Shown piece after piece: positions 10,834-61,561 of a DNA stretch of 64,000 nt. Source of the DNA: Candidatus Anderseniibacteriota bacterium (GTDB lineage Bacteria > Patescibacteriota > Andersenbacteria > UBA10190). Where the stretch lies: NCBI GenBank assembly GCA_040900375.1, contig JBBDZC010000003.1, positions 64,586 to 128,585 on the forward strand. The letters run 5' to 3'. Made by a program: the position numbers and the translations under genes. Numbering within the stretch: position 1 is the stretch's first letter; each line of letters begins with the position of its first letter. Under the pieces are notes generated by a model. The model was not told the DNA's origin and did not search any database. It worked only from the letters and a program-made list of their open reading frames with translations.

Positions 10834-12732
10834 ATGTGCGGCATTACAGGTAAAGTTTCATTTGGTAGTTCAGACATAACTACTGCCGATATAGATCGTA
10901 TGAATAAGGCCGTAGCTCACCGTGGTCCGGACGATGCTGGCATGTATATCTCGCCGGACCACCGGGTTGGCCTGGGCCATCGGCGCCTTGCCATCCTAGA
11001 CCTTACCTCAGCAGGGCGCCAACCTATGCGGTATCGCGACCGGTATGTAATTGTATTTAATGGGGAAATATACAATTTCCAGCAAAAACGTGAGGAACTT
11101 GAAAAAGAAGGGTACCGTTTCAAGTCGCATACCGATACCGAAGTTATTCTCGCATTATATGACAAGTACAAGGAGGGATGCCTTCGGCACTTGCGCGGCA
11201 TGTTCGCCTTTGCTATTTACGACGAACAGAAGCAAACTTTATTCTGCGCCCGTGACCGCGTTGGTAAAAAACCTTTTAAGTACTATTGGGGTAACGACGT
11301 TTTTGTGTTTGCCTCTGAACTCAAAGCTATCCTCACGCAGAGCGAGTATCAGCGAGAGCCCGATTATCTGGCCATCCACCACTACTTAAGCCTGCAGTAT
11401 GTCCCCGCGCCTTTGACGGGGTTTAAAGACATTAGGAAACTCAAACCCGGCCATTTTTTACAGCTCGATATCAAAAAACAAAAGCTGACTGTGAACCGAT
11501 ACTGGCAGCTTGATTTCCGCCACAAACAAACAAAAGCAGCGGCTGATTGGAAAAAAGAAATTATCGACAAGCTGGATGAAGCTACACAGCTGCGCCTTAT
11601 TGCGGATGTGCCGTTGGGAGCCTTCCTCTCGGGCGGCATTGATTCGTCAGCGGTTGTGGCGCTGATGAGTCGGCACAGTGCGAAGCCAGTCAAAACGTTT
11701 TCCATTGGGTTTGAGGAGGCAGGATATAACGAGCTACCGTTTGCCCGGATGGTCGCGAAAAAATTCAAAACCGATCATACGGAGTTTATTGTACGACCCG
11801 AAACAATCGATATTTTGCCAGAGCTGGTGGGGCTGTATGAAGAGCCGTACGCCGACAGCAGCGCTTTACCAACCTACTACTTGAGCAAGCTTACTCGTCA
11901 ACACGTGACAGTTGCCCTTAATGGAGATGGTGGCGATGAGAACTTCGCTGGCTATCCATGGTACGGCGTCCAGAAGTTCACTGACTGGTACCAGAAGCTG
12001 CTGCCGCTCCATAAGCTCACCGCTGCGCCAGCTACCCGTGTGATCAGTCGTCTCTATCCCAACACCTTTACTGATCGAATGCTGCGGTTTGCCCACACAC
12101 TCGACCAACCTACGGCCGCACGCTACTTGAATTACATCTGTTACTTCACCGATGTGCAGAAATCTGACCTGTATGGTCCCCAGCTGCGTCACTTTTTGAA
12201 GGAAGTCAGCTCTGCTGAAATATTAGCCGAGCACTTCGCAGCGGTACCCGATGCTCATCCGGTTGATGAAGCCCAATATGTTGATATCAACACTTATTTG
12301 CCTGACGATCTGCTAGTAAAAGTAGATATCGCGACTATGGCGGTAGCATTGGAAGGCCGGTCACCGTTCCTCGACCATGAATTTCTTGAACTTAGCGCGA
12401 GCATTCCCGCCAACCTTAAACTGCGAGGACTGAACACAAAAAAGTACATTCTCAAGCAAGCTCTCCACGATATATTACCCGACGAGGTATTATATCGACC
12501 CAAAAAAGGGTTTGGCGTGCCCATCGGTACATGGTTTCGCAGTGACTTAAAGAATTACTTGCGGAGCGTTGTTCTCTCTCCACGATCCCTCAGCCGTGGT
12601 CTTTTTGAGGAGGAAGCTATTCAACGCCTCATCGCCACACACAATACTACTACGATTAACCACGCTCCACGCTTATGGGCCTTGTTAACACTCGAATTGT
12701 GGTGGCGGCGGTATTTTGATAGTCAGAAGTAG
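10834..12732 (+). CDS. asparagine synthase (glutamine-hydrolysing) family amidotransferase
   Basis: 632 aa. The N-terminus 'MCGITG' carries the Ntn Cys2 nucleophile. 'RGPDDAG', 'LAILDL' and the PP-loop 'SGGIDSS' are present. The start is 3 nt after the upstream gene's stop. Confidence 0.9.
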   Translation: MCGITGKVSFGSSDITTADIDRMNKAVAHRGPDDAGMYISPDHRVGLGHRRLAILDLTSAGRQPMRYRDRYVIVFNGEIYNFQQKREELEKEGYRFKSHTDTEVILALYDKYKEGCLRHLRGMFAFAIYDEQKQTLFCARDRVGKKPFKYYWGNDVFVFASELKAILTQSEYQREPDYLAIHHYLSLQYVPAPLTGFKDIRKLKPGHFLQLDIKKQKLTVNRYWQLDFRHKQTKAAADWKKEIIDKLDEATQLRLIADVPLGAFLSGGIDSSAVVALMSRHSAKPVKTFSIGFEEAGYNELPFARMVAKKFKTDHTEFIVRPETIDILPELVGLYEEPYADSSALPTYYLSKLTRQHVTVALNGDGGDENFAGYPWYGVQKFTDWYQKLLPLHKLTAAPATRVISRLYPNTFTDRMLRFAHTLDQPTAARYLNYICYFTDVQKSDLYGPQLRHFLKEVSSAEILAEHFAAVPDAHPVDEAQYVDINTYLPDDLLVKVDIATMAVALEGRSPFLDHEFLELSASIPANLKLRGLNTKKYILKQALHDILPDEVLYRPKKGFGVPIGTWFRSDLKNYLRSVVLSPRSLSRGLFEEEAIQRLIATHNTTTINHAPRLWALLTLELWWRRYFDSQK

Positions 12733-31303: not shown

Positions 31304-34213
31304 ATGCTAGTATGTTTGGTATCTAAATCTATGTCGTTTCTTACGGCCAAAATTTTTCCATATTTTCTGCAAAACCGGGCGGGCTTAGCACTACTTTTCC
31401 TGACCTGGCTGATTTTTTTTAGCCCGCTTATTATTGGCGGCAAAGTTTACTTCTTGGATGACTTAAAGATCATCTATTATCCCCTCGAACAGGCATATGC
31501 CGAGGCACAAGCGGCTGGCACGTTGCCTCTCTGGAATAATGAATTTGGTTTTGGTCACCCCTTACTGGCGTGGGGACAATTAGGCTTCTTCACCCCGCTT
31601 CATCTCCTCCTGCGTGCGCTCCAGGTTCCGCCCCTATGGCTCTTGCAGATCTCGGTTGTCACCTACTATGCCGCAGGCTTGCTAGGAATGTTTGTCTGGC
31701 TCCGCCGCCGGGTTTCCAGTATGGCCGCCGCTCTTGGCAGTATTGTCTATGTTTTTTCCGGTTTTCACATTGGCCACTTAAACCACGTTAACTTTTACAC
31801 CGCCACGATGGTCTTGCCGTGGCTGATCTTGAGCCTCGATACCTTTATTGTCAGACCGACAATACGCAAGGCTTTGCTCGTCAGTAGCCTCGGCGCCATT
31901 ATGGCCTTGAGTGGCCAACCCCAGATTGTTCTGTATGCTGCGATTCTCACCGCTGTGATCGCCTTATTTCTGCTCGGTGAACAATGCTTACTTCGCCCCG
32001 CCCGCTCAACCTGGGCCATGAAGATTATCGGCTGGGGTTTGTTGTCAGTCGTGATTGCTCTAGCCTTGAGCAGTTTCGCTCTTCTGCCTCTTTATGAACT
32101 ACTGCCGCAAACCGAGCGCAACGATGCATTGCCTGAATCAGTCCTCTATGAATTTAGTTATCCTCCCTATCACGCTGTCACGCTCCTCTTGCCATACTTC
32201 TTTGGGGACCACGCACACTATTGGGGGCCGAAAGGCTTCCAAGAGTTAGCCGCCTATGTGGGCATCATCCCGCTCTTGCTCACCGGCTTGAGCGTCGCCA
32301 CGTGGTCAGATAAAAAAGCCCTGCGCTTAGGCGCCCTTACCCTCCTGATTATCAGTATCAGCTTTGCGCTGGGCCGCTACTCACCGCTCTACGTTTGGCT
32401 CGTGCAACAAAAGTTCCTGACGTCACTAGCTGTGCCTGGCCGATTCGTATTCTTCTTTGATTTTGCCATCGTCCTCTTAAGCGCCATAGGCCTCGATGAC
32501 CTGCTGCGGTTGCCGCAGCGTTCCCGAAAACAACGACTCATCAGCATAGGCTTAAGCTTAATCGTTATTAGTATCTTGATGGCGCCTTTGTTGATCCAGA
32601 TCCAGACCGACACCCGGCTCTATGAGCGCTTGCTAGAGTTAGTCGCCAGTGGTGATAGCCACGGCATCCTCGCCCTCCTCGGCCTTGTTCTCTTCTTCGC
32701 TGCCCTAGCTATCATTACACTTAAGCCACGCTACCAACAACACGCGCAGTTTGCTCTGTTGTCCATCGCGGCTCTAACCTTAATCGTCTTAGGTTGGCAC
32801 TACAATCCCCGTGTTGACCGCACCGTCGCCACTACGCCGTCGCCTTTTACTCGCCACCTGGAACAATATCGTGCGGAGACTGGCCTTCCCGCCCGTCTTT
32901 ACAGTGCCGAAAGTATTCTGGCCAAGCTGCCAACTAATGTTAGCATCCGGGCGACCGAGCGCATCTCTCCCAGCTTTACCGTTCACCAGTTAATCAAAGT
33001 ACGTAAAGAAAACCTTTCCTGTCTGCAAATCCCGGTACAGGTGAACCATCGCTTTGCCGGCACGGTTCACATTACGCTACGTGAAGATTTTACTACCCCC
33101 ATCCTCCAAGCCTATGATTTCCCGCCGGATAAGCTCTCCGGGGAACAACCTCTTGAACTCTGCTTCCCCATTTTAGCCGCGAGTGTAGGCAAAACATTTG
33201 TGCTTTCCTTCGCCAGCGAACTGCCAAGCCCGCTGGAACTCTCCTACACTTCATATAACCAAGAAGAGGAACCCGCTTACTTTGTACGTGTGGCTAACCC
33301 TACCCCAGAACAACTGCGCAACTCAAAAAAGCAAGCGCAAATTATATTTACTTCCTTTTATCCGCACACAGGTGACCTCGAAGCAACACTCCTTGCCCGC
33401 CACCTCAATGTCACGGCCGGTGCCTCAAGCGCGCGGTGGATTGGCGCCCTGTCGCTGGGCAACTACCGCGCTTTTATTGAGCACTTCTTTGCCAATGACC
33501 GTGAGCCATTCGATGGTGACGGTATTCATGCTCTCGTTAGCTTCCGCCACATTTTAAACATGGCCGGCGTCACCCACCTGATTCAGTCGCTGCCGCTCGG
33601 CGCCGACGACAGCCTCCTAGAAACTGGTTACACGCTCCTCGCCAAGTATGATTACGGACCAAAAGAGGTGCGGCTCTACCGCAATCCCAGTGCCTTTCCT
33701 AAAGCTTTTCTAGTCAACCGAGCAATCTTTAAACCAGCCGCGGACGAGACGCGCTACGCCATGCAATATGAACCGTATGATCCCCAAGAGCTCGTGTATA
33801 TTGACGGGCCAACCCCGCCAACCGAACTTAGCCCTAGTACCTCTCTGCCCGCCGCCGGCACGGTTAAACTCCTCTCGTACACTCCCCGGCAAGTTGAGGT
33901 CGAGGTCAATACTAGCCAGCCCGCTTTCTTAGTCGTCAGCGACAGCACGACTCCCCAATGGCAAACATTTATTGATAACCAGCCGGCTCCTTATTTCCGC
34001 GCTAACTCAATTTTTAAAGCCGCCCAAGTCTCGAGCGGCAATCACATAGTGTCTTTTCGTTACTTTTCTCCTGCCGTGGCCGCCGCCCAGATCATCACGC
34101 TGGTAGCAATTGGGATCACCCTTTTGCTGGCGCTGCTTCCCAGTTTAGGTAGGTGGTACTGGCGCAGACAGGCAGCAGCAATCAAAGCAAAGCCTCGTGA
34201 TACTTCACTGTAG
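31304..34213 (+). CDS. YfhO-like GT-C membrane glycosyltransferase with internal soluble module
   Basis: 969 aa. The N-terminal region 'GGKVYFLDDLKIIYYPLEQAY...GTLPLWNNEFGFGHPLLAWGQLG' resembles the YfhO family 'lP.W....G.G' loop. It has many TM helices. There is a soluble module copy at about nt 32960..33260 ('ISPSFTVHQLIKVRKENLSCLQIPVQVNHRFAGTVHITL...'). Confidence 0.6.
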   Translation: MLVCLVSKSMSFLTAKIFPYFLQNRAGLALLFLTWLIFFSPLIIGGKVYFLDDLKIIYYPLEQAYAEAQAAGTLPLWNNEFGFGHPLLAWGQLGFFTPLHLLLRALQVPPLWLLQISVVTYYAAGLLGMFVWLRRRVSSMAAALGSIVYVFSGFHIGHLNHVNFYTATMVLPWLILSLDTFIVRPTIRKALLVSSLGAIMALSGQPQIVLYAAILTAVIALFLLGEQCLLRPARSTWAMKIIGWGLLSVVIALALSSFALLPLYELLPQTERNDALPESVLYEFSYPPYHAVTLLLPYFFGDHAHYWGPKGFQELAAYVGIIPLLLTGLSVATWSDKKALRLGALTLLIISISFALGRYSPLYVWLVQQKFLTSLAVPGRFVFFFDFAIVLLSAIGLDDLLRLPQRSRKQRLISIGLSLIVISILMAPLLIQIQTDTRLYERLLELVASGDSHGILALLGLVLFFAALAIITLKPRYQQHAQFALLSIAALTLIVLGWHYNPRVDRTVATTPSPFTRHLEQYRAETGLPARLYSAESILAKLPTNVSIRATERISPSFTVHQLIKVRKENLSCLQIPVQVNHRFAGTVHITLREDFTTPILQAYDFPPDKLSGEQPLELCFPILAASVGKTFVLSFASELPSPLELSYTSYNQEEEPAYFVRVANPTPEQLRNSKKQAQIIFTSFYPHTGDLEATLLARHLNVTAGASSARWIGALSLGNYRAFIEHFFANDREPFDGDGIHALVSFRHILNMAGVTHLIQSLPLGADDSLLETGYTLLAKYDYGPKEVRLYRNPSAFPKAFLVNRAIFKPAADETRYAMQYEPYDPQELVYIDGPTPPTELSPSTSLPAAGTVKLLSYTPRQVEVEVNTSQPAFLVVSDSTTPQWQTFIDNQPAPYFRANSIFKAAQVSSGNHIVSFRYFSPAVAAAQIITLVAIGITLLLALLPSLGRWYWRRQAAAIKAKPRDTSL

Positions 34214-36319
34214 TAGGCGGTCGTCCTCTTCGGTGGCCTCCTGACTGCCTCGTAAATACCGCAAACGGATCGCTAGGTCGCCTGGCTTCTGCGCGGCAGC
34301 GGGAAAAGATGCGTCCGCGCTAATAAGCATGTTTGTTGGCCGATAATTAAAATCTCTCGCGTAGCGCAAGGTAGGCGCTTGCCCTAGTGTAGTTCCTTCT
34401 GCCTGGATCTCCACAAATACTTCCTGTCCTTTGAGTGATAATGTTTGCGGCAAACGAAGAGTGAGCCAGCGATTATCTTCTAGATCTGACACGGGTAGCT
34501 GCCACTCATAAATAATAGGCGCGAGTGGTCCGGCTTTCAATTTGACGATCAGCATGCCGCTCGTGGCTTTACCGCTATATGTCGCGAGCAAAAGATCGAG
34601 GCCAAGTAGCTCATCATACTCGATCATTACTACCTGGCCCACATGAAGACCTGGCACTAATTCTCCCACAACTTGCTCATAGACACGCTTCTCATACACC
34701 CAGGCAAACTCCTTGCCGGCAACATGGGCGACAAACACTGGTACTTTCTTTTTGAAGTATTCATCAATAAAGTTATTCGCATAGTGATCAGGTTCCCGCC
34801 CAAACATATTGCGGTAGACAACGATAAAACGAACCCTCCCCTGTTCATGCGCATTGATGTGAGCCACGTGCGCCGTCGTATATGTTCCCAGCTCCTCGGG
34901 ATACCACGAGGCAACGACTGCCTCTGGAGCATGAGCATCCAGCCACGCTCCCACTTGTTCCAAACCTTCACCCCAGCCTAGTTCTTGGCTCAAGTTGTCA
35001 GCAAACAGTGGATTACTATAGGCAATGGCATAAGGATGATACACATAAACCTGGCTGGCTAAGTAACCCACAACAACAATCGGCAAGATGAGATAAGCAG
35101 TAAGCAGCCACGATCTGGTTGCCGCTGTCCACTTTTCGGCAACTATGCTGCCCACGATCTTGGCTGCCATCACAATACCGGCAGCGGCGATCAGGTTGAG
35201 TGCCGGCCAGATCGGCAGAATGTAGCGGTCGCCCTTTTTTGCTCCCAAGGTCATCATGATGACGAAAAAAACAATGTAGGCTAATAATAACCAGAGAGTA
35301 GCGGTGGAGATAGCTAACGCTGTTGGTTGCCCCCGGCGGGCCCTGTTTGTCTGCCAAAGTATCACCCCTATAAAGAAAATCACAAAAATGTGAAGGACGG
35401 GGTTGACACGTGTTACCAAAGTAAAGAGATAGTGAGTCGGATTTAAAGTGTAGTCTTCAACCATGTGGTGAGGGGTCAGTGCCGCTCGTCCCAGATCGCG
35501 TTTTAGAACCAAAACATTTCCTTGCGGATCAGGAACCCACAAAATCGCGGGCCAAATGGTGACAAACATAACCACGACAATCAGCAACCACAAACCAAAA
35601 TCACGTAGCCTTTTCTTAAATTTTAGCCATGAGCGCATAGTGACTCCATCCGTTATGACAGCCAGCCAAAAAAACGGCACCATAAAAACCGCGGGTGCTT
35701 TCGTGAGCACTGCCAGACCAGTCAATACTGCCGAGATCACCAGGAAGCGGCGCGCAAAGTGTGACTGTCGGTAAATAATAGTCGCCAGTACAGCCGCAAA
35801 TAAAAAGTGAGCCAGGAGCGCGTCAACATGGGCCACCCGAGAATAACCAATTAAGAACGGATCAAGGGCTATCATCAGCGTTCCCAATAAGGCTACGGAG
35901 CGGTTCCCCAACAGACGCCGCAGCAGGATATAGGTTACGGCAATAAGGAAAGTGATTACTAGAGCTACTGAAAATTGCGCCGCCGTTACAAAGTAAATAA
36001 GGCTAGCAAACGAAAAAGGCACGCCTACGAAAAACATTTTGATCATGACTGCCCCCCCAATGAGCCACAGTGCCGTGACACCCGGATGAGTGGTCTGGAG
36101 CATGTCATTGAACCGAAAATCTTTAAAAGCTTGAATAAACTCATACGAACGGCCAATCCAATTCTTTTCGTCAGCAGTTAAAAATAGGCCCAGATCAAGC
36201 AGCCGTGGCAGCCCGGCTACAACCAGAAGCACGCCGATAATAAATATGTCGACGCGGTACTGATGGAACCAAGCCCCTACAGTATTTTTATTTATTCGCA
36301 TAGGCGCCAAGGTACGCAT
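34205..36319 (-). CDS. GT-C glycosyltransferase, PMT/ArnT-like ('LTADEKNW' loop-1 motif) with C-terminal soluble module
   Basis: 704 aa. The first periplasmic loop is 'LDLGLFLTADEKNWIGRSYEF'. 'GDRYILP' is present and there are at least 11 helices. The C-terminus '...KEFAWVYEKRVYEQ...GQVVMIEYDELLGLDLLLATYSGK...' is the recurring module. Confidence 0.65.
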   Translation of the reverse strand: MRTLAPMRINKNTVGAWFHQYRVDIFIIGVLLVVAGLPRLLDLGLFLTADEKNWIGRSYEFIQAFKDFRFNDMLQTTHPGVTALWLIGGAVMIKMFFVGVPFSFASLIYFVTAAQFSVALVITFLIAVTYILLRRLLGNRSVALLGTLMIALDPFLIGYSRVAHVDALLAHFLFAAVLATIIYRQSHFARRFLVISAVLTGLAVLTKAPAVFMVPFFWLAVITDGVTMRSWLKFKKRLRDFGLWLLIVVVMFVTIWPAILWVPDPQGNVLVLKRDLGRAALTPHHMVEDYTLNPTHYLFTLVTRVNPVLHIFVIFFIGVILWQTNRARRGQPTALAISTATLWLLLAYIVFFVIMMTLGAKKGDRYILPIWPALNLIAAAGIVMAAKIVGSIVAEKWTAATRSWLLTAYLILPIVVVGYLASQVYVYHPYAIAYSNPLFADNLSQELGWGEGLEQVGAWLDAHAPEAVVASWYPEELGTYTTAHVAHINAHEQGRVRFIVVYRNMFGREPDHYANNFIDEYFKKKVPVFVAHVAGKEFAWVYEKRVYEQVVGELVPGLHVGQVVMIEYDELLGLDLLLATYSGKATSGMLIVKLKAGPLAPIIYEWQLPVSDLEDNRWLTLRLPQTLSLKGQEVFVEIQAEGTTLGQAPTLRYARDFNYRPTNMLISADASFPAAAQKPGDLAIRLRYLRGSQEATEEDDRLLQ

Positions 36320-36352
36320 GCAGACACGTTATTCTCTCTAAACTAGAAATGC

Positions 36353-36535
36353 AATGGAGCCGCCCCCGCTAGGTTACGCGGGGTATCCCAACTTTGCCCA
36401 AGCTTCGCTCTCGCGAGACAGGGTGGCTACATTGCCCAAGGAGTTGGCCCTGCCTGCCGGCAGACATGGTCCGCCAATTCTTCTTTCAGAACCCCTTCTA
36501 TCTCCGCTACAAGCGGCGGGATTTACGGGGTGCAA
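36353..36535. repeat. intergenic repeat element copy A (conserved ~80 nt 5' arm and ~30 nt 3' arm with variable core)
   Basis: Near-identical to 40044..40205 over 'aatgRagccgcccccgctaggttacgcggggtatccYaacttYgcccaagcttcgctctYgcgagacagggYggctRcRttgc' and '...ccgcYacaagYggcgggatttacggggKgcaWtaa'. It contains the hairpins ccccgc-N8-gcgggg and ccgcYac-aa-gYggcgg. Spurious ORFs 36354..36587(+), 36394..36702(+) and 36374..36583(-) overlap it. Confidence 0.7.
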
Positions 36536-36540
36536 TAAAT

Positions 36541-36972
36541 CTACTGCATTTCCCCTGGCTCTCGCTCGAGCTGCCCCGTGCAACTAAAAGTGCCGCCGCA
36601 GACATCGTAAAATGTCTGTTCCCTCTCCCGCACAACCCGGTAATAAAAATTGTGGCCTTCTTCATAATCAAAGTCTGCCCTCGGCTCTGCCTTATTTTCT
36701 AATGGGGCCCGCACATACCAACCAAGGGCGCCGCTAGTATCGGCCGTCATAATGACATACTGGTAGGGTGCGGGTGGAGTAAACGTCAGGGGATAGGTCT
36801 CGTGCTGGTTAAAATACATTTCTAATTCCCGTTTCAAGCCCGCTACGTCTTCTCGCCGCTGTCCATCACGTCGCTCTCGCCGCGCATGCTGCAGCGACGG
36901 TACCACCATACCTATCACTAGCATAACGAGCAGAGCGACTACCCCTATTTCTTTAAGCGCGCGAGTATTCAT
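36541..36972 (-). CDS. type IV pilin / pseudopilin-like small secreted protein (non-canonical N-terminus)
   Basis: 143 aa. An N-terminal hydrophobic helix 'IGVVALLVMLVIGMVV' is followed by 'RRERRDGQRREDVAGLKRELEMYFNQHETYP'. That matches the conserved pilin segment after the TM helix ('A.d.qR..D...i..ale.Y....g.YP'). The canonical G-F-T-L-I-E prepilin peptidase site is not evident. Confidence 0.45.
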   Translation of the reverse strand: MNTRALKEIGVVALLVMLVIGMVVPSLQHARRERRDGQRREDVAGLKRELEMYFNQHETYPLTFTPPAPYQYVIMTADTSGALGWYVRAPLENKAEPRADFDYEEGHNFYYRVVREREQTFYDVCGGTFSCTGQLEREPGEMQ

Positions 36973-37014
36973 AATCTCTTCAATAGTATACCCAGGTCAG
37001 AGTATAGTGCAGGC

Positions 37015-38598
37015 ATGCACCGGAACACAGAAAAGATAGCGATTATTATCGGACTGCTAGCCATGATTATCGCGCCGCGGATCTTTGACCTCGATGCCTT
37101 CCTCACCGCTGACGAAAAACGGTGGGTCGCCAACACTAATGGTTTTGTGATGAAGCTGGCTGCTCGGCAGTGGGACAATCTATTGCAACAACCCCATCCT
37201 GGTATCACGACCCAGTGGTTTGGTGCGCCCACTATTTTTTCGGACTCATGGACAATACGCAAGTTACCTCTAGTTTTGGCCCAAAGCATATTAGTCCTTC
37301 TCATCGGCTATATTTTTTGGCGACTATGGGGAACCCTCCCGGCCATCCTGCTGACTCTACTCCTTGGTCTTAATCCTCCCCTGGTTGCTCACACTCGCGT
37401 TTATGCCATGGATTCTCTCTTGGCTTTATTTTTGCTCTTGTCCCTTGGGTGCTTACTCACCTGGAAAAAATATCAGCAATGGCAGTACCTGGTTTTTGCG
37501 GCGGGGGCGGCAGCGGCAGCTATCCTCTCAAAACTGCCCGGAATTTTGATCCTGCCGTTTACTCTATTATTTCTTCTGTGGCACGCTCTCTCCACTAGAC
37601 GTTATCGCCACACATTGCGAGCGCTCGCTCTATGGAGCCTCATATTGCTCACCAGCCTCGTCTTAATTCTTCCTTCGTTGGCGACAAATACACAAAATGT
37701 CATCAACGAATTCCGCAGCTTCTTTGACTCGGATGACTATCAGGAACTACACCAAGAAGAACCCACCTACTACCTGCGCTCGTTGATCTTTTTCTCTACT
37801 CCCCTTCAATTGTTCTCCCTCGTTTTACTGCCGCTGACTGCTATCTGGCTTTACTACCGCCAGGTGGTACCAAAAACACAGATTTCACGGGCGGAAGCAA
37901 TCTGGCTCATACTGTTCGGTATCAGCTTCGTCGCTATGATGAGCCAGGGTCTAAAAAAAGGCGACCGCTACGTTTTGCCCGCTTTTCTTATATGGGATAC
38001 CGTCGTAGTTATAACAGTTTGGTGGTTATTGACCATTATTCGGCATGATGTTTTCCAGCTTACCAGTTTGCTTAGAATCAACAAACAAGCGGGTGACGCG
38101 CCGGGGGACCCGACCCCAAAGCATCATTCATCACATCTTGCAGCAAACTACCTACCCACTCTCTGGATCGGCGGGGTGGTGCTTATGCTCATCCTGCAGG
38201 CTGCTACCCTCTGGCAGCTCCATCCCTATGCTTTAGCCTATGTCAATCCTCTGACTAAACCCTTCTTCGGCGAACGCCGTTTAGGCTGGGGTGAGGGTTT
38301 AGATCTAGCCGCCTTATATCTTGGCGCTCAACCTGATAGCAAGCACTTAAAAGTGGCGGCTTACTATCCCATTGAATTCTCACTGCATTTTCCTGGCGAA
38401 GTCGTACCGGCCCATCAACATGAGCATGAGAGTGTTGACTACATAGTCCTCTACCGGGCGATGTATGAACGAGGCCCCCAAGCTTGGGAAACCGATGTTT
38501 TGCAGTATTATAAAGACAAGACCCCAGAAAAAGTGATCAGTTTAAACGGCATTGAGTACGTGTGGATTTATTCGCAGTCACCAAGTAGTCATGATTAG
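37015..38598 (+). CDS. GT-C glycosyltransferase, PMT/ArnT-like ('LTADEKRW' motif)
   Basis: 527 aa. 'DLDAFLTADEKRWVANTNGF', 'KKGDRYVLP' and a C-terminal 'NGIEYVWIYSQ' parallel 34205..36319 and 52898..54979. Confidence 0.65.
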   Translation: MHRNTEKIAIIIGLLAMIIAPRIFDLDAFLTADEKRWVANTNGFVMKLAARQWDNLLQQPHPGITTQWFGAPTIFSDSWTIRKLPLVLAQSILVLLIGYIFWRLWGTLPAILLTLLLGLNPPLVAHTRVYAMDSLLALFLLLSLGCLLTWKKYQQWQYLVFAAGAAAAAILSKLPGILILPFTLLFLLWHALSTRRYRHTLRALALWSLILLTSLVLILPSLATNTQNVINEFRSFFDSDDYQELHQEEPTYYLRSLIFFSTPLQLFSLVLLPLTAIWLYYRQVVPKTQISRAEAIWLILFGISFVAMMSQGLKKGDRYVLPAFLIWDTVVVITVWWLLTIIRHDVFQLTSLLRINKQAGDAPGDPTPKHHSSHLAANYLPTLWIGGVVLMLILQAATLWQLHPYALAYVNPLTKPFFGERRLGWGEGLDLAALYLGAQPDSKHLKVAAYYPIEFSLHFPGEVVPAHQHEHESVDYIVLYRAMYERGPQAWETDVLQYYKDKTPEKVISLNGIEYVWIYSQSPSSHD

Positions 38599-40048
38599 AT
38601 TCCTTAAAAAGCCGCGTCTCTCGCCTGATACAGTTGCGCTCTTGCTCCTCCTAGGCCTGTGCCTAGTCGCCAACAGTATGTATCTCCACCGCGTGCCTGG
38701 GCTTTTGGGTGATGAGGGTTCAGAAGGGGAAAATGTATTCAATATTTTGGACACCAAGAAGCTAACGGTTGTTGGTGAACGCTCGTACATTGGCCCGTTG
38801 ATTGACTATGTCCGCATCCCAGCTGTGCTCCTTGTCGGTTTTAACGCTCTGTCCCTGCGGCTCATCATGTTGCTGGCCACGCTTGTGATGTTCATCGTGG
38901 CCGCCTCTGTACTACGAAAGTTGTTTGGTACGAGTGCCTCTTTGTATATTCTTACCTTTCTCTTTTTCTCCCCCATCTATCTTCTCTACCAACGGCTGGG
39001 TTGGGCTATTACGCTCATTCCTCTGGGAATAATCCTCATGCTCTGGACCTGGCAACAGGCCTGGCACAAGCGCTCCCTTGTAGTGGGCTTACTAGGGGGC
39101 TTGTCTTTAAGTAACCATTTTATCTTCTTGCCCTCACTCGTGGCTGTCGCGGCTCCTTTTGCCCTAGGCACACTTCTCAAGCCGCACCAGGCTAAGCAGT
39201 GGCTCTTGGCCGGTGTTGGATTCTGGGCAATGTTTGGCACCCAGTTTGCGGTTTTAAGTCTAGCTCCTGAAGACCAAGGTGACCCTAGTGAGGTCGTCAG
39301 TAGTGTTGGTGAGCGGCTCGCGCAACTACCAACGGTGCTACCTGGTTTACTCTCTGGTTCAGCATACTCTGCGCTCTACACGGGCGAACCCTTTCCTGCC
39401 CTTTCCATCACCCTGATTACTGTCAGCCTTGCCCTTCTTGCAAGTCTTGCCCTTCTCTTGAGCGAGCGGCGGCGATATGTCCTTGTGTGGGTACTCTGTA
39501 CTATCCTCCAGCTGGTAGTTTTAAACCTAATAATTGATCGGTTCGCCGTGCGATATTTTGTAATTGCTGTTTTAAGCACCTGGGCGCTGGCTGGCTACGG
39601 ATTCTACGCCATTATTAAACGAGTGGCGCCCTCGTCAGTCCGTCTCCATGGCGTGCTGCCAGTGCTTATTGCCCTTGGTTTCATCACCGCCGCTGGTGTC
39701 ACTACCCTGCAGCCATATCTAAAAACTGGTGGCAGTACTGCTCCTGTTGTCCTGACCCCCCAGCGCTCGGAACAAGCCGCCGCTTTTGTCGCCCTCGATC
39801 CACTCCTGGCGTGCGTGCGAGGAGCGGGTCCAGTCTTCGCCGAAGACATTCATATCTACAACCGCCTCTATTATCTCCAACATAGTTTAAATGATTTAGT
39901 CGTGCCGCTTGAGAGCTCTACGGCCCGCTGGCTGGTAGCGTACCGAGAGCCCCAGGAGATGAGCCCCCGCGCCGATGAACGCTGTCCTGACCTAGCGCAT
40001 TTCCGAGTGACGCCGTATGTCACCACCCCAGACTCGATTGAGGAATGA
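38591..40048 (+). CDS. polytopic membrane protein, putative GT-C glycosyltransferase
   Basis: Start set at Met 38591 ('MIRFLKKPRL'), which overlaps the upstream stop as ATGATTAG. It has the loop motif 'GLLGDEGSEGENVF' and about 11 helices. Its stop codon lies inside repeat element copy B. Confidence 0.5.
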   Translation: MIRFLKKPRLSPDTVALLLLLGLCLVANSMYLHRVPGLLGDEGSEGENVFNILDTKKLTVVGERSYIGPLIDYVRIPAVLLVGFNALSLRLIMLLATLVMFIVAASVLRKLFGTSASLYILTFLFFSPIYLLYQRLGWAITLIPLGIILMLWTWQQAWHKRSLVVGLLGGLSLSNHFIFLPSLVAVAAPFALGTLLKPHQAKQWLLAGVGFWAMFGTQFAVLSLAPEDQGDPSEVVSSVGERLAQLPTVLPGLLSGSAYSALYTGEPFPALSITLITVSLALLASLALLLSERRRYVLVWVLCTILQLVVLNLIIDRFAVRYFVIAVLSTWALAGYGFYAIIKRVAPSSVRLHGVLPVLIALGFITAAGVTTLQPYLKTGGSTAPVVLTPQRSEQAAAFVALDPLLACVRGAGPVFAEDIHIYNRLYYLQHSLNDLVVPLESSTARWLVAYREPQEMSPRADERCPDLAHFRVTPYVTTPDSIEE

Positions 40049-40205
40049 AGCCGCCCCCGCTAGGTTACGCGGGGTATCCTAACTCCGCCCAAGCTTCGCT
40101 CTTGCGAGACAGGGCGGCTGCGTTGCTTAAGGAATCGGCGGAGCCGACTCCTTAAGGGAACCCCCCATCCCCGCCACAAGTGGCGGGATTTACGGGGGCA
40201 TTAAG
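40044..40205. repeat. intergenic repeat element copy B
   Basis: It shares both arms with 36353..36535. The core is replaced by a near-perfect 13 bp stem hairpin 'cttaaggaatcgg-cggag-ccgactccttaag' (40126..40156). It lies between convergent genes. Confidence 0.7.
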
Positions 40206-40217
40206 CAAAAAGATCGT

Positions 40218-42095
40218 TTACTGGTATGACCGCTGGGCAATCCATCGGTCATACCAGAGCTGCCATGTTAGTAATGTCCATAACTTTTTACGGTGATCGT
40301 GCCGACCGCGCTTATGCTCATAAAGCAAGCGTTGCACGGCTGCAGGCTGCAATACCCCGTCAGCAGCCAGCTTAGATGAATTGAGAACAGTTGTTGCCCA
40401 GTCATAGAGCGGCCCTTTGAGCCAGTAGCCTAAAGGAATGCCAAATCCTTTTTTGGGCCGATCAATAATTTCAGCCGGAATGCGACCGCGCATAATCTTT
40501 TTTAAAAGATATTTATTACGCTTCAAATGCGCGGGTAGGCGCATAACAAATTCCGCCAGATCAATATCTAAGAAAGGCGTACGCGCCTCTAATGACACCA
40601 TCATCGCCGCCCGATCAAGCTTAACCAAAATGTCGTTGTGTAAATAATGAACGACCGTTAGCAGCGACACTGCATCCAGGGTCTCCAGCTGACTCATCCG
40701 CGGCGCTAAAGCCTCGATGTCGGAAAATAAACTGCCCGGTGTGTGCCACTGCGGCTGGAGTAAATCTTGCATTTCTCGCTCTGTAAATGAACCAAGCCAT
40801 ATTTGATTACGGCTGCCCAGGGGATAGCCTAAACCTTTAAGAAATGATTTGAGTTTAAAATCAAAGGAAAAATTGCTGTATTTTGGCGGATACAAATTGA
40901 CTACTTGCTGCAGTAAGATAGTCGCCCACGCTGGCAACCACCGCAAGCGCTCGGCCCAGATAGCCGCTGAAAAAGTGCCGTAGCCAGCAAAGAGTTCATC
41001 GCTGCCATCGCCATCGAGTCCCACTGTAATGTATCGCCGAGCAATCTTACTGACCTGATACATAGGTAGGAGTGAAGCATCGGCCAGCGGTATATCAATA
41101 CTGGGTCCTACCGCAGCGAGCGTCTCGTGAAAAGACTTAAGATTAAATTTCACCGTGTGGTGAATAGTCTGGAGAGCGCGAGCTGCCCCATAGGCATACT
41201 GCGATTCGTCAAAAGAGCGCTCATTAAAAGACACGGAAAATGAATGAGTCTGCTTCCCGGCGTCAGCCAGATAGGCCGTAATCGCCGTGGAATCTAACCC
41301 CCCGCTCAAGAAAACACCTACGGGCACATCAGCCACCTGGCGCCGGGAAATAGCCACCCTAAGCTTTTGTTCTAGTTGCTCACCAGCCTCGTCTTCCGAG
41401 GTAAACTGTCGCTTTGGCAGATATGTTGGCCGCCACCACTCGCGAACACTAAATTCCTTGTCCGTAACGAACGCGTAATGACCAAGCGGGATTTGGTGAA
41501 TATCGCGGTAGATGGTAGTCGGAGCGGGCACATATTCATATAAGAAATATTTACTGACGGCTGACGGCTGGAGCTGGCGTGATACCCGAGGATGAAGGAG
41601 TAGTGATTTTGGTTCCGAAGCAAACAAAAAAACGTGCGGATCATTAAAATAATAGAGGGGTTTCTTGCCAAATGGATCACGCGCGAGAATTAGCGTCTGC
41701 TGCTGGCGATTCCACCATGCAAAAGAAAACATCCCCCGCAATAGAGACAAAGCAGCGACACCTTGTCTCGCCAACAAATGGAGGAGGACTTCAGTATCAG
41801 AGGTTGAAACTAAAGGAACATCCCTAAGATATCGCTGCTGTAGTTCTCTAAAATTATAAATTTCACCATTAAAAACTATCGTATGCTGCCTATCAGGCGT
41901 GGACATCGGTTGTCGGGCGAGCGATGAAAGATCAAGAATGGCCAGCCGGCGGTGGGCCAATCCGAGATTACCATCAACATACAACCCCTGGTCATCCGGA
42001 CCACGGTGAGCGATCGCTGTTGCCATTGTTGACAATAGTGAAGTGTCAACGCCGTTTGCGCTTTGACGGTCCCACATGCCCACAATGCCGCACAT
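40218..42095 (-). CDS. asparagine synthase (glutamine-hydrolysing) family amidotransferase, second copy
   Basis: 'MCGIVGMWDR' with Cys2 (start set at 42095; the ORF extends 9 codons upstream). 'RGPDDQG', 'LAILDL' and the PP-loop 'SGGLDST'. About 35% identity by eye to 10834..12732. Confidence 0.85.
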   Translation of the reverse strand: MCGIVGMWDRQSANGVDTSLLSTMATAIAHRGPDDQGLYVDGNLGLAHRRLAILDLSSLARQPMSTPDRQHTIVFNGEIYNFRELQQRYLRDVPLVSTSDTEVLLHLLARQGVAALSLLRGMFSFAWWNRQQQTLILARDPFGKKPLYYFNDPHVFLFASEPKSLLLHPRVSRQLQPSAVSKYFLYEYVPAPTTIYRDIHQIPLGHYAFVTDKEFSVREWWRPTYLPKRQFTSEDEAGEQLEQKLRVAISRRQVADVPVGVFLSGGLDSTAITAYLADAGKQTHSFSVSFNERSFDESQYAYGAARALQTIHHTVKFNLKSFHETLAAVGPSIDIPLADASLLPMYQVSKIARRYITVGLDGDGSDELFAGYGTFSAAIWAERLRWLPAWATILLQQVVNLYPPKYSNFSFDFKLKSFLKGLGYPLGSRNQIWLGSFTEREMQDLLQPQWHTPGSLFSDIEALAPRMSQLETLDAVSLLTVVHYLHNDILVKLDRAAMMVSLEARTPFLDIDLAEFVMRLPAHLKRNKYLLKKIMRGRIPAEIIDRPKKGFGIPLGYWLKGPLYDWATTVLNSSKLAADGVLQPAAVQRLLYEHKRGRHDHRKKLWTLLTWQLWYDRWIAQRSYQ

Positions 42096-42160
42096 GCTGC
42101 AAGGGTAAAGTTTACCCTGCATCTTTGCAAAATAGATCCCTTCGGTGCGAAGATCAGAGA

Positions 42161-60922: not shown

Positions 60923-60970
60923 TATGGATGAGGCGACGCTATTTAGGAAGGATTAGCTGTACCACACAAT

Positions 60971-61011
60971 TATAAATAATGCAAAGGTAGCAGTATCACT
61001 AAACTGCTACC
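60971..61011 (-). terminator. putative rho-independent terminator for the minus-strand operon ending at 61080
   Basis: An 8 bp stem 'ggtagcag'/'ctgctacc' (60986..61011) with a 10 nt loop. On the minus strand it is followed by the T-rich 'tttgcattatttata'. It lies between the end of ORF 61080..61484 and the promoter region of the GT2 gene. Confidence 0.45.
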
Positions 61012-61079
61012 GCCCGCGGTCATAAAAAAGCCTATGCAAGCTAGGCTCACACAGGCAGTCCTTCAGGAAACTCAAGCAG

Positions 61080-61484
61080 TCACTCCCTTTCCCCTTGTGG
61101 TGGCATACGCCTGCTCCGTGCTTGGAGAATCTCCTGGATTGATAAAGTGGTCGGAGTATAATCGAGTAGTGTTGATGTTTTTTCTCTCGACCGAATGGTA
61201 TCCGACTCCTCGCGAAAACCAAAGATCCTACTCAGCCAACGTGTCAGCAGCCAAAAAATCCAGAAGGAGGCTAACCATGCAACCACCGGCTGTCGGGGTG
61301 TTCCGTTAAGATGTAGCCCAATGTTCAGAAACCCAATTGCGCCCAACAGGAAATGCCACCACCGTAGCGGCGACGGTAACTCTGGCTCTTGCACTCCTCG
61401 CCACTGACTTCTGCCTGATAAGCCCGGTACATGCTTGATCTCGCCATGGTAGTGGAAATGACCATTATTAAAGCTGACCATCAC
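61080..61484 (-). CDS. small hypothetical membrane protein
   Basis: 134 aa with two hydrophobic segments ('WWHFLLGAIGFLNIGLHL' and 'VVAWLASFWIFWLL'). It lies between the nucleotidyltransferase gene and the terminator. No family recognised. Confidence 0.35.
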   Translation of the reverse strand: MMVSFNNGHFHYHGEIKHVPGLSGRSQWRGVQEPELPSPLRWWHFLLGAIGFLNIGLHLNGTPRQPVVAWLASFWIFWLLTRWLSRIFGFREESDTIRSREKTSTLLDYTPTTLSIQEILQARSRRMPPQGERE

Positions 61485-61561
61485 GTAGCCTCCTTAAGAA
61501 AGGGATAGAGCAAAATTGCCAAAGAACATCAATCTTCGACTCACCCTGGCCTGAGGGCTCG

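Follow-up and report, generated by a model that had tools for sequence, protein, structure and literature searches.

A Structured, Noncoding Repeat at Two Gene-End Junctions of an Envelope-Glycan Cluster in a Candidatus Anderseniibacteriota Bacterium

Why should a compact bacterial genome, whose spacers are mostly tiny and AT-rich, hold two copies, 3.7 kb apart, of a GC-rich and strongly folded block of roughly 200 nucleotides (nt)? The question is raised by a stretch of 64,000 nt from a Candidatus Anderseniibacteriota bacterium (GenBank assembly GCA_040900375.1, contig JBBDZC010000003.1, positions 64,586 to 128,585 of the forward strand), the whole of which we refer to as the window. A sequence-only reading of this DNA had noticed two direct copies of a structured element bracketing a three-gene segment, and had set several interpretations side by side: a structured RNA, a dispersed repeat family, the trace of a duplication or of a cassette insertion, or a pair of recombination sites. 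Here we report that the repeat exists, that it is noncoding, that it keeps its helices in both copies, and that the nearest relatives available do not have it at the same junction. The explanation that we tentatively favor is that it is a lineage-specific, REP/BOX-like structured intergenic module that was copied once locally, is kept for its fold, and acts as an RNA structure at transcript 3′ ends or between cistrons.

Two Direct Copies of a Repeat

The two copies, designated A and B, are direct repeats at gene ends, with cores at positions 36353-36535 and 40044-40205, respectively. A repeat search of the window aligned their 5′ arms over 96 nt at 88% identity (36353-36448 versus 40044-40139) and their 3′ arms over 31 nt at 90% identity (36500-36530 versus 40167-40197), and blastn within the window gave E-values of 2.6e-27 for the 5′ arm and 2.7e-7 for the 3′ arm. 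The direct-repeat pair is therefore as first described, except that the original count of seven substitutions in about 80 nt was too low: there are eight in the first 80 nt and 12 in the 96 nt. Within the 5′ arm lies a block of 31 nt that is fully identical in the two copies (40049-40079 = 36358-36388). The weak similarity said to continue upstream can be placed at 36331-36352 versus 40022-40043, where about seven positions in ten match in the best block, a level barely above chance. The full unit, roughly 200 nt long, is probably 36331-36540 in A and 40022-40217 in B. An artefact of GC-rich low complexity was ruled out, as the repeat is not low-complexity sequence. The copies are listed here with their cmsearch scores against a covariance model that we built from both of them.

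36331..36540, plus strand: copy A (core 36353-36535; weak left extension 36331-36352; 226 bits)
40022..40217, plus strand: copy B (core 40044-40205; 210 bits)

Both copies were also recovered, 100% identical to the window, in the Logan assembly (k = 31) of run SRR27977660. Because this independent assembly shows the same sequence, both copies are real and do not represent an assembly artefact. Three Logan contigs (loci L001, L011, and L012) cover the region, and all of them terminate exactly in the common 31-mer:

Logan contig 1, ending at 36387: 69,875 nt
Logan contig 2, 36359-40074: 3,716 nt
Logan contig 3, starting at 40050: 32,124 nt

Taken alone, the k = 31 graph does not distinguish the integrated layout from a deletion accompanied by a 3.7-kb circle. 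On present evidence, the main practical consequence of the repeat is that it splits short-k assemblies at this locus.

No third copy was found in the window, either by blastn or with the covariance model, or in about 16 kb of additional flank that was searched with the covariance model. Since the two long Logan contigs (69.9 kb and 32.1 kb) run unbroken, we infer that the 31-mer core has no further occurrence over about 105 kb of this genome. The idea of a REP-like family, or of a multicopy family resembling miniature inverted-repeat transposable elements (MITEs), was not upheld: the roughly 80 kb searched directly holds two copies, with neither terminal inverted repeats nor a target-site duplication. 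A low-copy, lineage-specific repeat is possible.

A Predicted Fold Common to Both Copies

The predicted fold is alike in A and B and consists of a closing helix around two hairpins, a central hairpin, and a 3′ hairpin enclosed by CCCC/GGGG. Its parts are as follows.

36358..36428, plus strand: 5′ domain of A; closing helix AGCCGCCC (36358-36365) / GGGTGGCT (36421-36428)
40049..40119, plus strand: 5′ domain of B; same helices, at 40049-40056/40112-40119, 40055-40060/40069-40074, and 40095-40099/40104-40108
36440..36481, plus strand: central hairpin of A; 9-bp base GGAGTTGGC / GCCAATTCT, homologous to B, and a 24-nt tip
40126..40156, plus strand: central hairpin of B; 14-nt arms (40126-40139/40143-40156), 93% complementary, and a 3-nt loop
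36491..36530, plus strand: 3′ domain of A; hairpin CCGCTAC-AA-GCGGCGG (36504-36519) within CCCC/GGGG, followed by GATTTAC
40161..40198, plus strand: 3′ domain of B; perfect hairpin CCCGCCAC-AA-GTGGCGGG (40170-40187), followed by ATTTACGGGGG

In both copies the closing helix of the 5′ domain can be written AGCCGCCC / GGGYGGCT. The first hairpin inside it, CCCCGC-TAGGTTAC-GCGGGG, spans 36364-36383 in A (arms 36364-36369 / 36378-36383) and 40055-40074 in B; in A, an alternative pairing of GCGGGGT with ACTTTGC is available. The second is small, TTCGC-TCTC-GCGAG at 36404-36417 in A. The 3′ hairpin of A contains one A.C mismatch as well as wobble pairs.

All of the hairpins that the sequence-only reading had named, and the palindrome CTGCCGGCAG that it had placed in copy A (36454-36463, in the tip of the central hairpin), were found in the copies to which they had been assigned, both by direct inspection of the sequence and by an inverted-repeat search. 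Its description of the central core as unrelated between the copies holds for the tip, which is 21 nt longer in A, and fails for the base of the stem, which is homologous (36440-36448/36473-36481 versus 40131-40139/40143-40151).

Signs of Constraint on the Fold

Over the aligned arms the copies differ by 18 transitions and no transversions. If two thirds of neutral changes are assumed to be transitions, the probability of drawing 18 out of 18 is (2/3)^18, or about 7e-4. RNAalifold, applied to the plus strand, returned 50 consensus pairs. Both copies keep every one of them, in nine cases by way of a G-C/G-U change. One pair in the central stem is compensated, being T36445-A36476 (U-A) in A and C40136-G40146 (C-G) in B, in what is a comparison of two sequences. 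The sole large indel between the copies sits at a hairpin tip. The restriction to transitions, the preservation of the helices, the compensated pair, and the confinement of the large indel to a hairpin tip suggest that the folded shape of the repeat has been under selection, and they sustain the earlier view of it as a structured element.

The gaps that hold the copies also stand apart from the other spacers of the window. Their GC contents are 0.55 and 0.61, as compared with 0.32-0.49 elsewhere, which makes them the only GC-rich gaps in the window, and they have the lowest combined folding z-scores over both strands.

Protein-coding constraint was considered and rejected: the substitutions show no 3-nt periodicity, the candidate open reading frame (ORF) has eight nonsynonymous versus two synonymous codons, and the stops differ. 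An ORF beginning with ATG does start at the equivalent site in both copies on the plus strand (36354-36590, MEPPPLGYAGYPN..., and 40045-40155, MKPPPLGYAGYPN...); we judge it to be noncoding.

Both Copies Abut Stop Codons in a Glycan Cluster

Copy A occupies the gap between the stop codon of a gene for a 143-residue protein (36541, minus strand), 6 nt away from where the copy A core ends, and the start of a gene for a 704-residue GT-C glycosyltransferase (36319, minus strand). Copy B occupies the whole of the gap between a converging gene for a 485-residue GT-C protein (plus strand) and asnB-2 (minus strand, stop at 40218). Each copy directly adjoins a stop codon. The gene context given previously, with minus-strand stops at 36541 and 40218 and a plus-strand gene (38591-40048) that stops inside copy B, is correct. 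The neighboring genes are these:

34205..36319, minus strand: 704-residue GT-C glycosyltransferase; start codon 34 nt from the copy A core
36541..36972, minus strand: 143-residue gene product (WEA04_00490), earlier called pilin-like; N-terminal hydrophobic segment, no Pfam or NCBIfam match
37015..38598, plus strand: 527-residue GT-C glycosyltransferase (PMT_2)
38591..40048, plus strand: 485-residue GT-C glycosyltransferase (WEA04_00500); weak PMT_2 match
40218..42122, minus strand: asnB-2, asparagine synthase-like amidotransferase

The left extension of copy B encodes the last seven or eight codons and the TGA stop (40046-40048) of gene 38591-40048. No other protein among the six homologues compared has so long a C-terminal tail as its product, whose final seven or eight residues fall within that extension, and the upstream similarity between the copies begins about where the protein ceases to align with its homologues. 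Such a tail is compatible with a module of about 195 nt having landed at the end of the gene, and with a B-like sequence as the origin of copy A.

The entire window belongs to a gene cluster for cell-envelope glycans. It encodes GT4 and GT2 glycosyltransferases, many large GT-C proteins (PMT_2 and YfhO-like), two AsnB-like amidotransferases, sugar epimerases, methyltransferases, and a flippase. We saw no gene for a recombinase, a transposase, or a reverse transcriptase in the window, and no phage gene. The cluster is very large, extending over all 64 kb and at least 16 kb of flank, and includes about nine large GT-C/YfhO-like membrane proteins, several of them without a Pfam match; the AsnB-like amidotransferases are encoded at 10834-12732 and 40218-42122.

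Two further features of the neighboring genes deserve mention. The last codons of asnB-2 (WYDRWIAQRSYQ, then the stop) form a hairpin of their own at 40221-40257, with 16-nt arms that are 94% complementary; the codons for the C-terminal RSYQ are the reverse complement of those for WYDR, and a CTTTTTG run follows on the minus strand 7 nt downstream. Hairpin and run may be asnB's own terminator, in which case minus-strand transcripts would stop before reaching copy B. Also, the 704-residue and 527-residue GT-C genes that flank copy A share inverted DNA similarity of 77-85% (35214-35266/37927-37979 and 34954-34980/38282-38308), which may reflect common GT-C coding sequence, both genes matching PMT_2.

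The Repeat Is Absent from the Same Junction in Relatives

Database searches returned no relative of the repeat. Rfam 15 had no match across the whole window at gathering thresholds, and more permissive scans, made with each copy, yielded nothing better than matches far under the gathering scores (E-values from 0.6 to 4.6). Three conserved blocks served as exact patterns for scanning GTDB representative genomes, JGI metagenomes, and IMG/VR; the matches (L002 and L003 in GTDB, L010 in the JGI metagenomes, and L009 in IMG/VR) showed no similarity beyond the pattern and were taken as chance. There was no blastn match in phage and plasmid collections. The covariance model found copies A and B only, and nothing in the syntenic relatives L004, L005, L006, and L008. 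We also translated both copies in six frames and searched the concatenated peptides against 5.8 billion predicted proteins, with the aim of detecting spurious ORFs called over other copies, and obtained no match. Our searches of the literature for repeats or structured RNAs of the candidate phyla radiation (CPR) turned up nothing relevant. The flanking proteins have no homologue closer than about 50% identity, and there is therefore no close relative among the available genomes.

In the syntenic relatives that can be compared, the repeat is missing from the junction at which the GT-C gene meets asnB. In L005 (GCA_964470115.1, contig CAYYAO010000021.1) the order is a 527-like gene, a 485-like gene, a gap of 158 nt, and asnB. 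L016 has the same genes, with the 3′ ends of the 485-like gene and asnB overlapping by 38 nt and no spacer at all. L006 and L007 have a 704-like gene, a gap of 509 nt, a 485-like gene, an extra gene for a 142-residue protein, and then asnB; beside the asnB stop is a simple hairpin (CCCGACAC..GTGCCGGG) followed by a run of T's, and the pilin-like/527 pair is missing. L004 keeps the divergent pilin-like/527-like pair among different neighbors. Comparison with related genomes had been proposed as a check along with the original observation, and it showed that at this junction the relatives have an overlap, a simple hairpin, or an unrelated palindrome. The repeat is therefore an addition specific to this lineage, at a junction that is elsewhere tight or occupied by something else.

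The same synteny bears on the suggestion that the stretch from 36.5 to 40.0 kb was inserted as a cassette. The right-hand junction, at which the 485-residue GT-C gene converges on asnB, is also found in L005, L006, and L016, and the pilin-like/527 pair is found in L004; L006 is without the first two genes of the 3.7-kb segment only, and not the whole of it. The segment is therefore not gained or lost as a whole, and the case for a mobile cassette is weakened accordingly.

Two noncoding regions in the relatives are of note in themselves. At the converging GT-C/asnB junction of L005, the closest available relative there, is an unrelated and near-perfect hairpin of about 142 nt (L005:2757-2898; folding z = -7.4) whose GC-rich core is flanked by 20-nt terminal inverted repeats that match perfectly (GGAGCTTGCTGAAAAATGAA / TTCATTTTTCAGCAAGCTCC); it has the look of a MITE or of a giant bidirectional terminator. 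The 509-nt noncoding gap of L006 (9493-10000), upstream of the 704-like gene, sits where the window has copy A and the pilin-like and 527-residue genes. It is moderately structured (z = -2.4 on the plus strand and -3.3 on the minus strand) and has no Rfam match.

A Structure at Transcript Ends?

How might such a repeat have come to be, and to be kept, at two gene ends? We suppose that a single local copying event carried the module from one gene-end junction to another 3.7 kb away. The similarity extends into the final codons of gene 38591-40048, which would make copy B the likelier source. The module would be transcribed within the neighboring mRNAs, and its folded structure, lying at a 3′ end or between cistrons, might define or protect transcript ends and insulate adjacent or converging transcription units. 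Such roles at transcript ends and in insulation have been reported for REP, BOX, and ERIC repeats in other bacteria.

Which strand would be transcribed is hinted at by the substitution spectrum. Read on the plus strand there are 14 C/T versus 4 A/G changes in a sequence of balanced base composition (two-sided binomial, about 0.03), and a C/T-heavy spectrum is what a GC-rich plus-sense RNA would tolerate. This is the only unbiased hint as to strand. The gene context leans the other way, both copies coming after minus-strand stop codons.

Several results weigh against the favored explanation. A consensus can be derived from the minus strand as well; it has 42 pairs, and these too are all kept in both copies. 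An assignment of strand from wobble pairs had to be dropped as circular, since a structure derived from each strand favors its own strand. A consensus scan of the element detected neither a promoter nor an intrinsic terminator on either strand, including no promoter for plus-sense transcription of copy A. Elsewhere in the window is a canonical intrinsic terminator (61056..61030, minus strand; a 12-bp stem and then TTTTTT), and thus the organism does use terminators of the hairpin-plus-U-run kind. Finally, relatives cope without the repeat at this junction, and it is therefore not essential. (The 639-nt spacer in which that terminator lies, 60923-61561, also holds a gene for a 133-residue protein called on the Logan contig.)

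Other Explanations

A less likely account, and one we regard as doubtful, is that the copies are neutral remnants of a local duplication or rearrangement in a cluster rich in GT-C paralogues, in which a 3′ flank including the last GT-C codons was copied and neither copy is functional. Just two copies were found in the sequence searched, close together and in direct orientation; GT-C paralogues are abundant nearby; relatives do without the repeat; and the similarity overlaps the coding end of gene 38591-40048 by about 22 nt, with no gene at the corresponding position of copy A. The earlier suggestion that a duplication once included the 3′ end of a gene is compatible with these data insofar as the similarity starts about where protein homology with relatives ends. 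A pattern of 18 transitions and no transversions, with helices kept and a pair compensated, is nevertheless unlike neutral divergence of about 12%. Two useless GC-rich blocks of 200 nt would also be unexpected in a compact genome with mostly tiny, AT-rich spacers, and simple tandem duplication does not yield 200-nt repeats around 3.5 kb of unique sequence.

It is improbable, in our estimation, that the repeat is a nonautonomous mobile or insertional element (MITE-, REP-, or BOX-like) that targets gene 3′ ends and may have other copies elsewhere in the genome. The orthologous junction in relatives is without it, and the same junction in L005 holds a different palindromic element with 20-nt terminal inverted repeats. 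An element of this sort would account for a GC content unlike that of other spacers, for the several codons by which copy B appears to lengthen the GT-C ORF, and for a modular build in which the ends are conserved and the middle varies. Yet the copies have no terminal inverted repeats in common and no target-site duplication, a further copy is lacking in the window and about 16 kb of flank, no additional 31-mer core occurs within about 105 kb, the window encodes neither a transposase nor a RAYT protein, and the public collections searched held zero matches.

Slimmer still are the prospects of the boldest possibility, an undescribed CPR-specific structured-RNA or recombination module, with the copies serving either as paralogous regulatory RNAs for the surface-glycan cluster or as sites for reversible excision of the 3.7-kb segment; the excision version, if true, would mean phase-variable glycosylation in an ultra-small episymbiont. 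Its RNA half has a counterpart that we think quite unlikely, namely that the copies are plus-strand small RNA genes, independent or derived from 3′ untranslated regions, that regulate in trans or antisense, copy B being processed from the transcript of the 527/485 GT-C operon and copy A expressed from its own promoter. The substitution spectrum favors the plus strand, as does the count of consensus pairs (50 plus versus 42 minus), the 3′ hairpin with its trailing ATTT is similar to the terminator-like hairpin that L006 has next to asnB, and a TAAACT box lies 8 nt upstream of the start of copy A. But there is no -35 element or consensus promoter, the U tract is merely three residues long, relatives and Rfam hold no homologue, and the C-rich loop motifs of A have no conserved counterpart in B.

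Least probable of all is that the copies are recombination substrates, site-specific through the 31-nt identical block or RecA-dependent, by which the three-gene segment is excised and reinserted and surface glycosylation varied: the repeats are direct and bracket glycosylation genes, the identical block carries an inverted repeat with an 8-bp spacer (TAGGTTAC) inside an arm otherwise 88% identical, and the k = 31 graph fits an excised circle plus a deletion as well as the integrated form, but the window has no recombinase gene, the inverted arms are just 6-7 bp long, relatives are syntenic at the segment's right boundary and do not have or lack the segment as a whole, and the assembler of this metagenome-assembled genome resolved a linear arrangement.

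We return to the structured intergenic module as our working explanation, and to why it would matter. Noncoding elements of CPR bacteria (Patescibacteria) are almost undescribed. Their genomes are compact, and a 200-nt structured spacer that is retained in one of them is therefore unlikely to be idle. If the repeat shapes transcript ends, or lets a glycosylation segment go, it bears on how an episymbiont controls or varies its surface glycans; and if transcription or recombination data were to give it a function, it would be among the first noncoding elements described from a CPR genome.

Comparison with Known Systems

Several known classes of element were considered. Integron attC sites were rejected: there is no R″ (RYYYAAC)/R′ (GTTRRRY) core motif at the ends, the three genes bracketed are in two orientations, and there is no integrase. 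So was the template repeat/variable repeat pair of a diversity-generating retroelement, for 14 of the 18 differences are C/T and four are A/G, the copies are noncoding except for seven or eight codons, and no reverse transcriptase is encoded. An integration site derived from a tRNA or tmRNA was likewise rejected, ARAGORN having found neither kind of gene in the window. Core sites of tyrosine recombinases (lox-, FRT-, or dif-like) have inverted arms of 11-13 bp around a spacer of 6-8 bp; here the arms are 6-7 bp, the spacer (TAGGTTAC) is 8 bp and lies inside the 31-nt identical block, and the window has no recombinase, although one may be encoded farther away.

Bidirectional intrinsic terminators offer a closer likeness, in that copy B lies between converging genes and its 3′ hairpin, CCCGCCAC-AA-GTGGCGGG-ATTT, resembles the hairpin and T-run of L006. 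Unlike them, the repeat has no U-rich tail on either strand and is far larger, and copy A lies between genes on the same strand. A Rho-independent terminator was rejected for either copy on either strand by the consensus scan, the 3′ hairpin being followed by AUUUAC.

The Correia (NEMIS) MITEs of Neisseria are structured intergenic insertions of 100-160 nt that are co-transcribed with their neighbors and can alter gene ends; they have 26-bp terminal inverted repeats and TA target duplications, and they occur as long and short variants that differ by an internal indel. The present repeat is likewise a structured intergenic element with a long and a short version produced by an internal indel. 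It differs from Correia elements in having neither terminal inverted repeats nor target duplications: the only end-to-end inverted repeat is one of 13 nt (85%) in A (36346-36358 / 36540-36552), which is absent from B, and the flanking sequences show no matching direct duplication at the ends of either copy.

The REP/BIME sequences of Enterobacteria (and ERIC/IRU) are GC-rich imperfect palindromes found after stop codons or between converging genes. They act on the stability or termination of mRNA 3′ ends, and their structure is kept by means of wobble and compensatory changes; REP units are 20-40 nt long, number in the hundreds, and are linked to RAYT transposases. Our repeat resembles them in its GC richness, in its location at stop codons and between converging genes, and in the preservation of structure through wobble and compensatory changes. 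It is unlike them in its unit of about 200 nt with three domains and in its two copies, and no Y1_Tnp or other transposase domain was found among window ORFs of at least 150 codons or in the Pfam annotations of Logan-contig genes.

The BOX elements of Streptococcus pneumoniae are modular intergenic repeats of the form boxA-boxB(n)-boxC, with more than 100 copies per genome. Unlike BOX, the present repeat occurs twice in about 105 kb, has no sequence similarity to those elements, and varies at the tip of one hairpin, whereas BOX varies in the number of boxB units. Like BOX, it is noncoding and intergenic, has conserved terminal modules around a middle of variable length, is predicted to have strong secondary structure, and lies next to gene ends, where BOX can be co-transcribed. 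Because no relative turned up in any collection searched, we regard it as a small lineage-specific repeat and not as a new system: it is in no described family, yet it is of a known kind, that of the structured intergenic repeats at gene ends.

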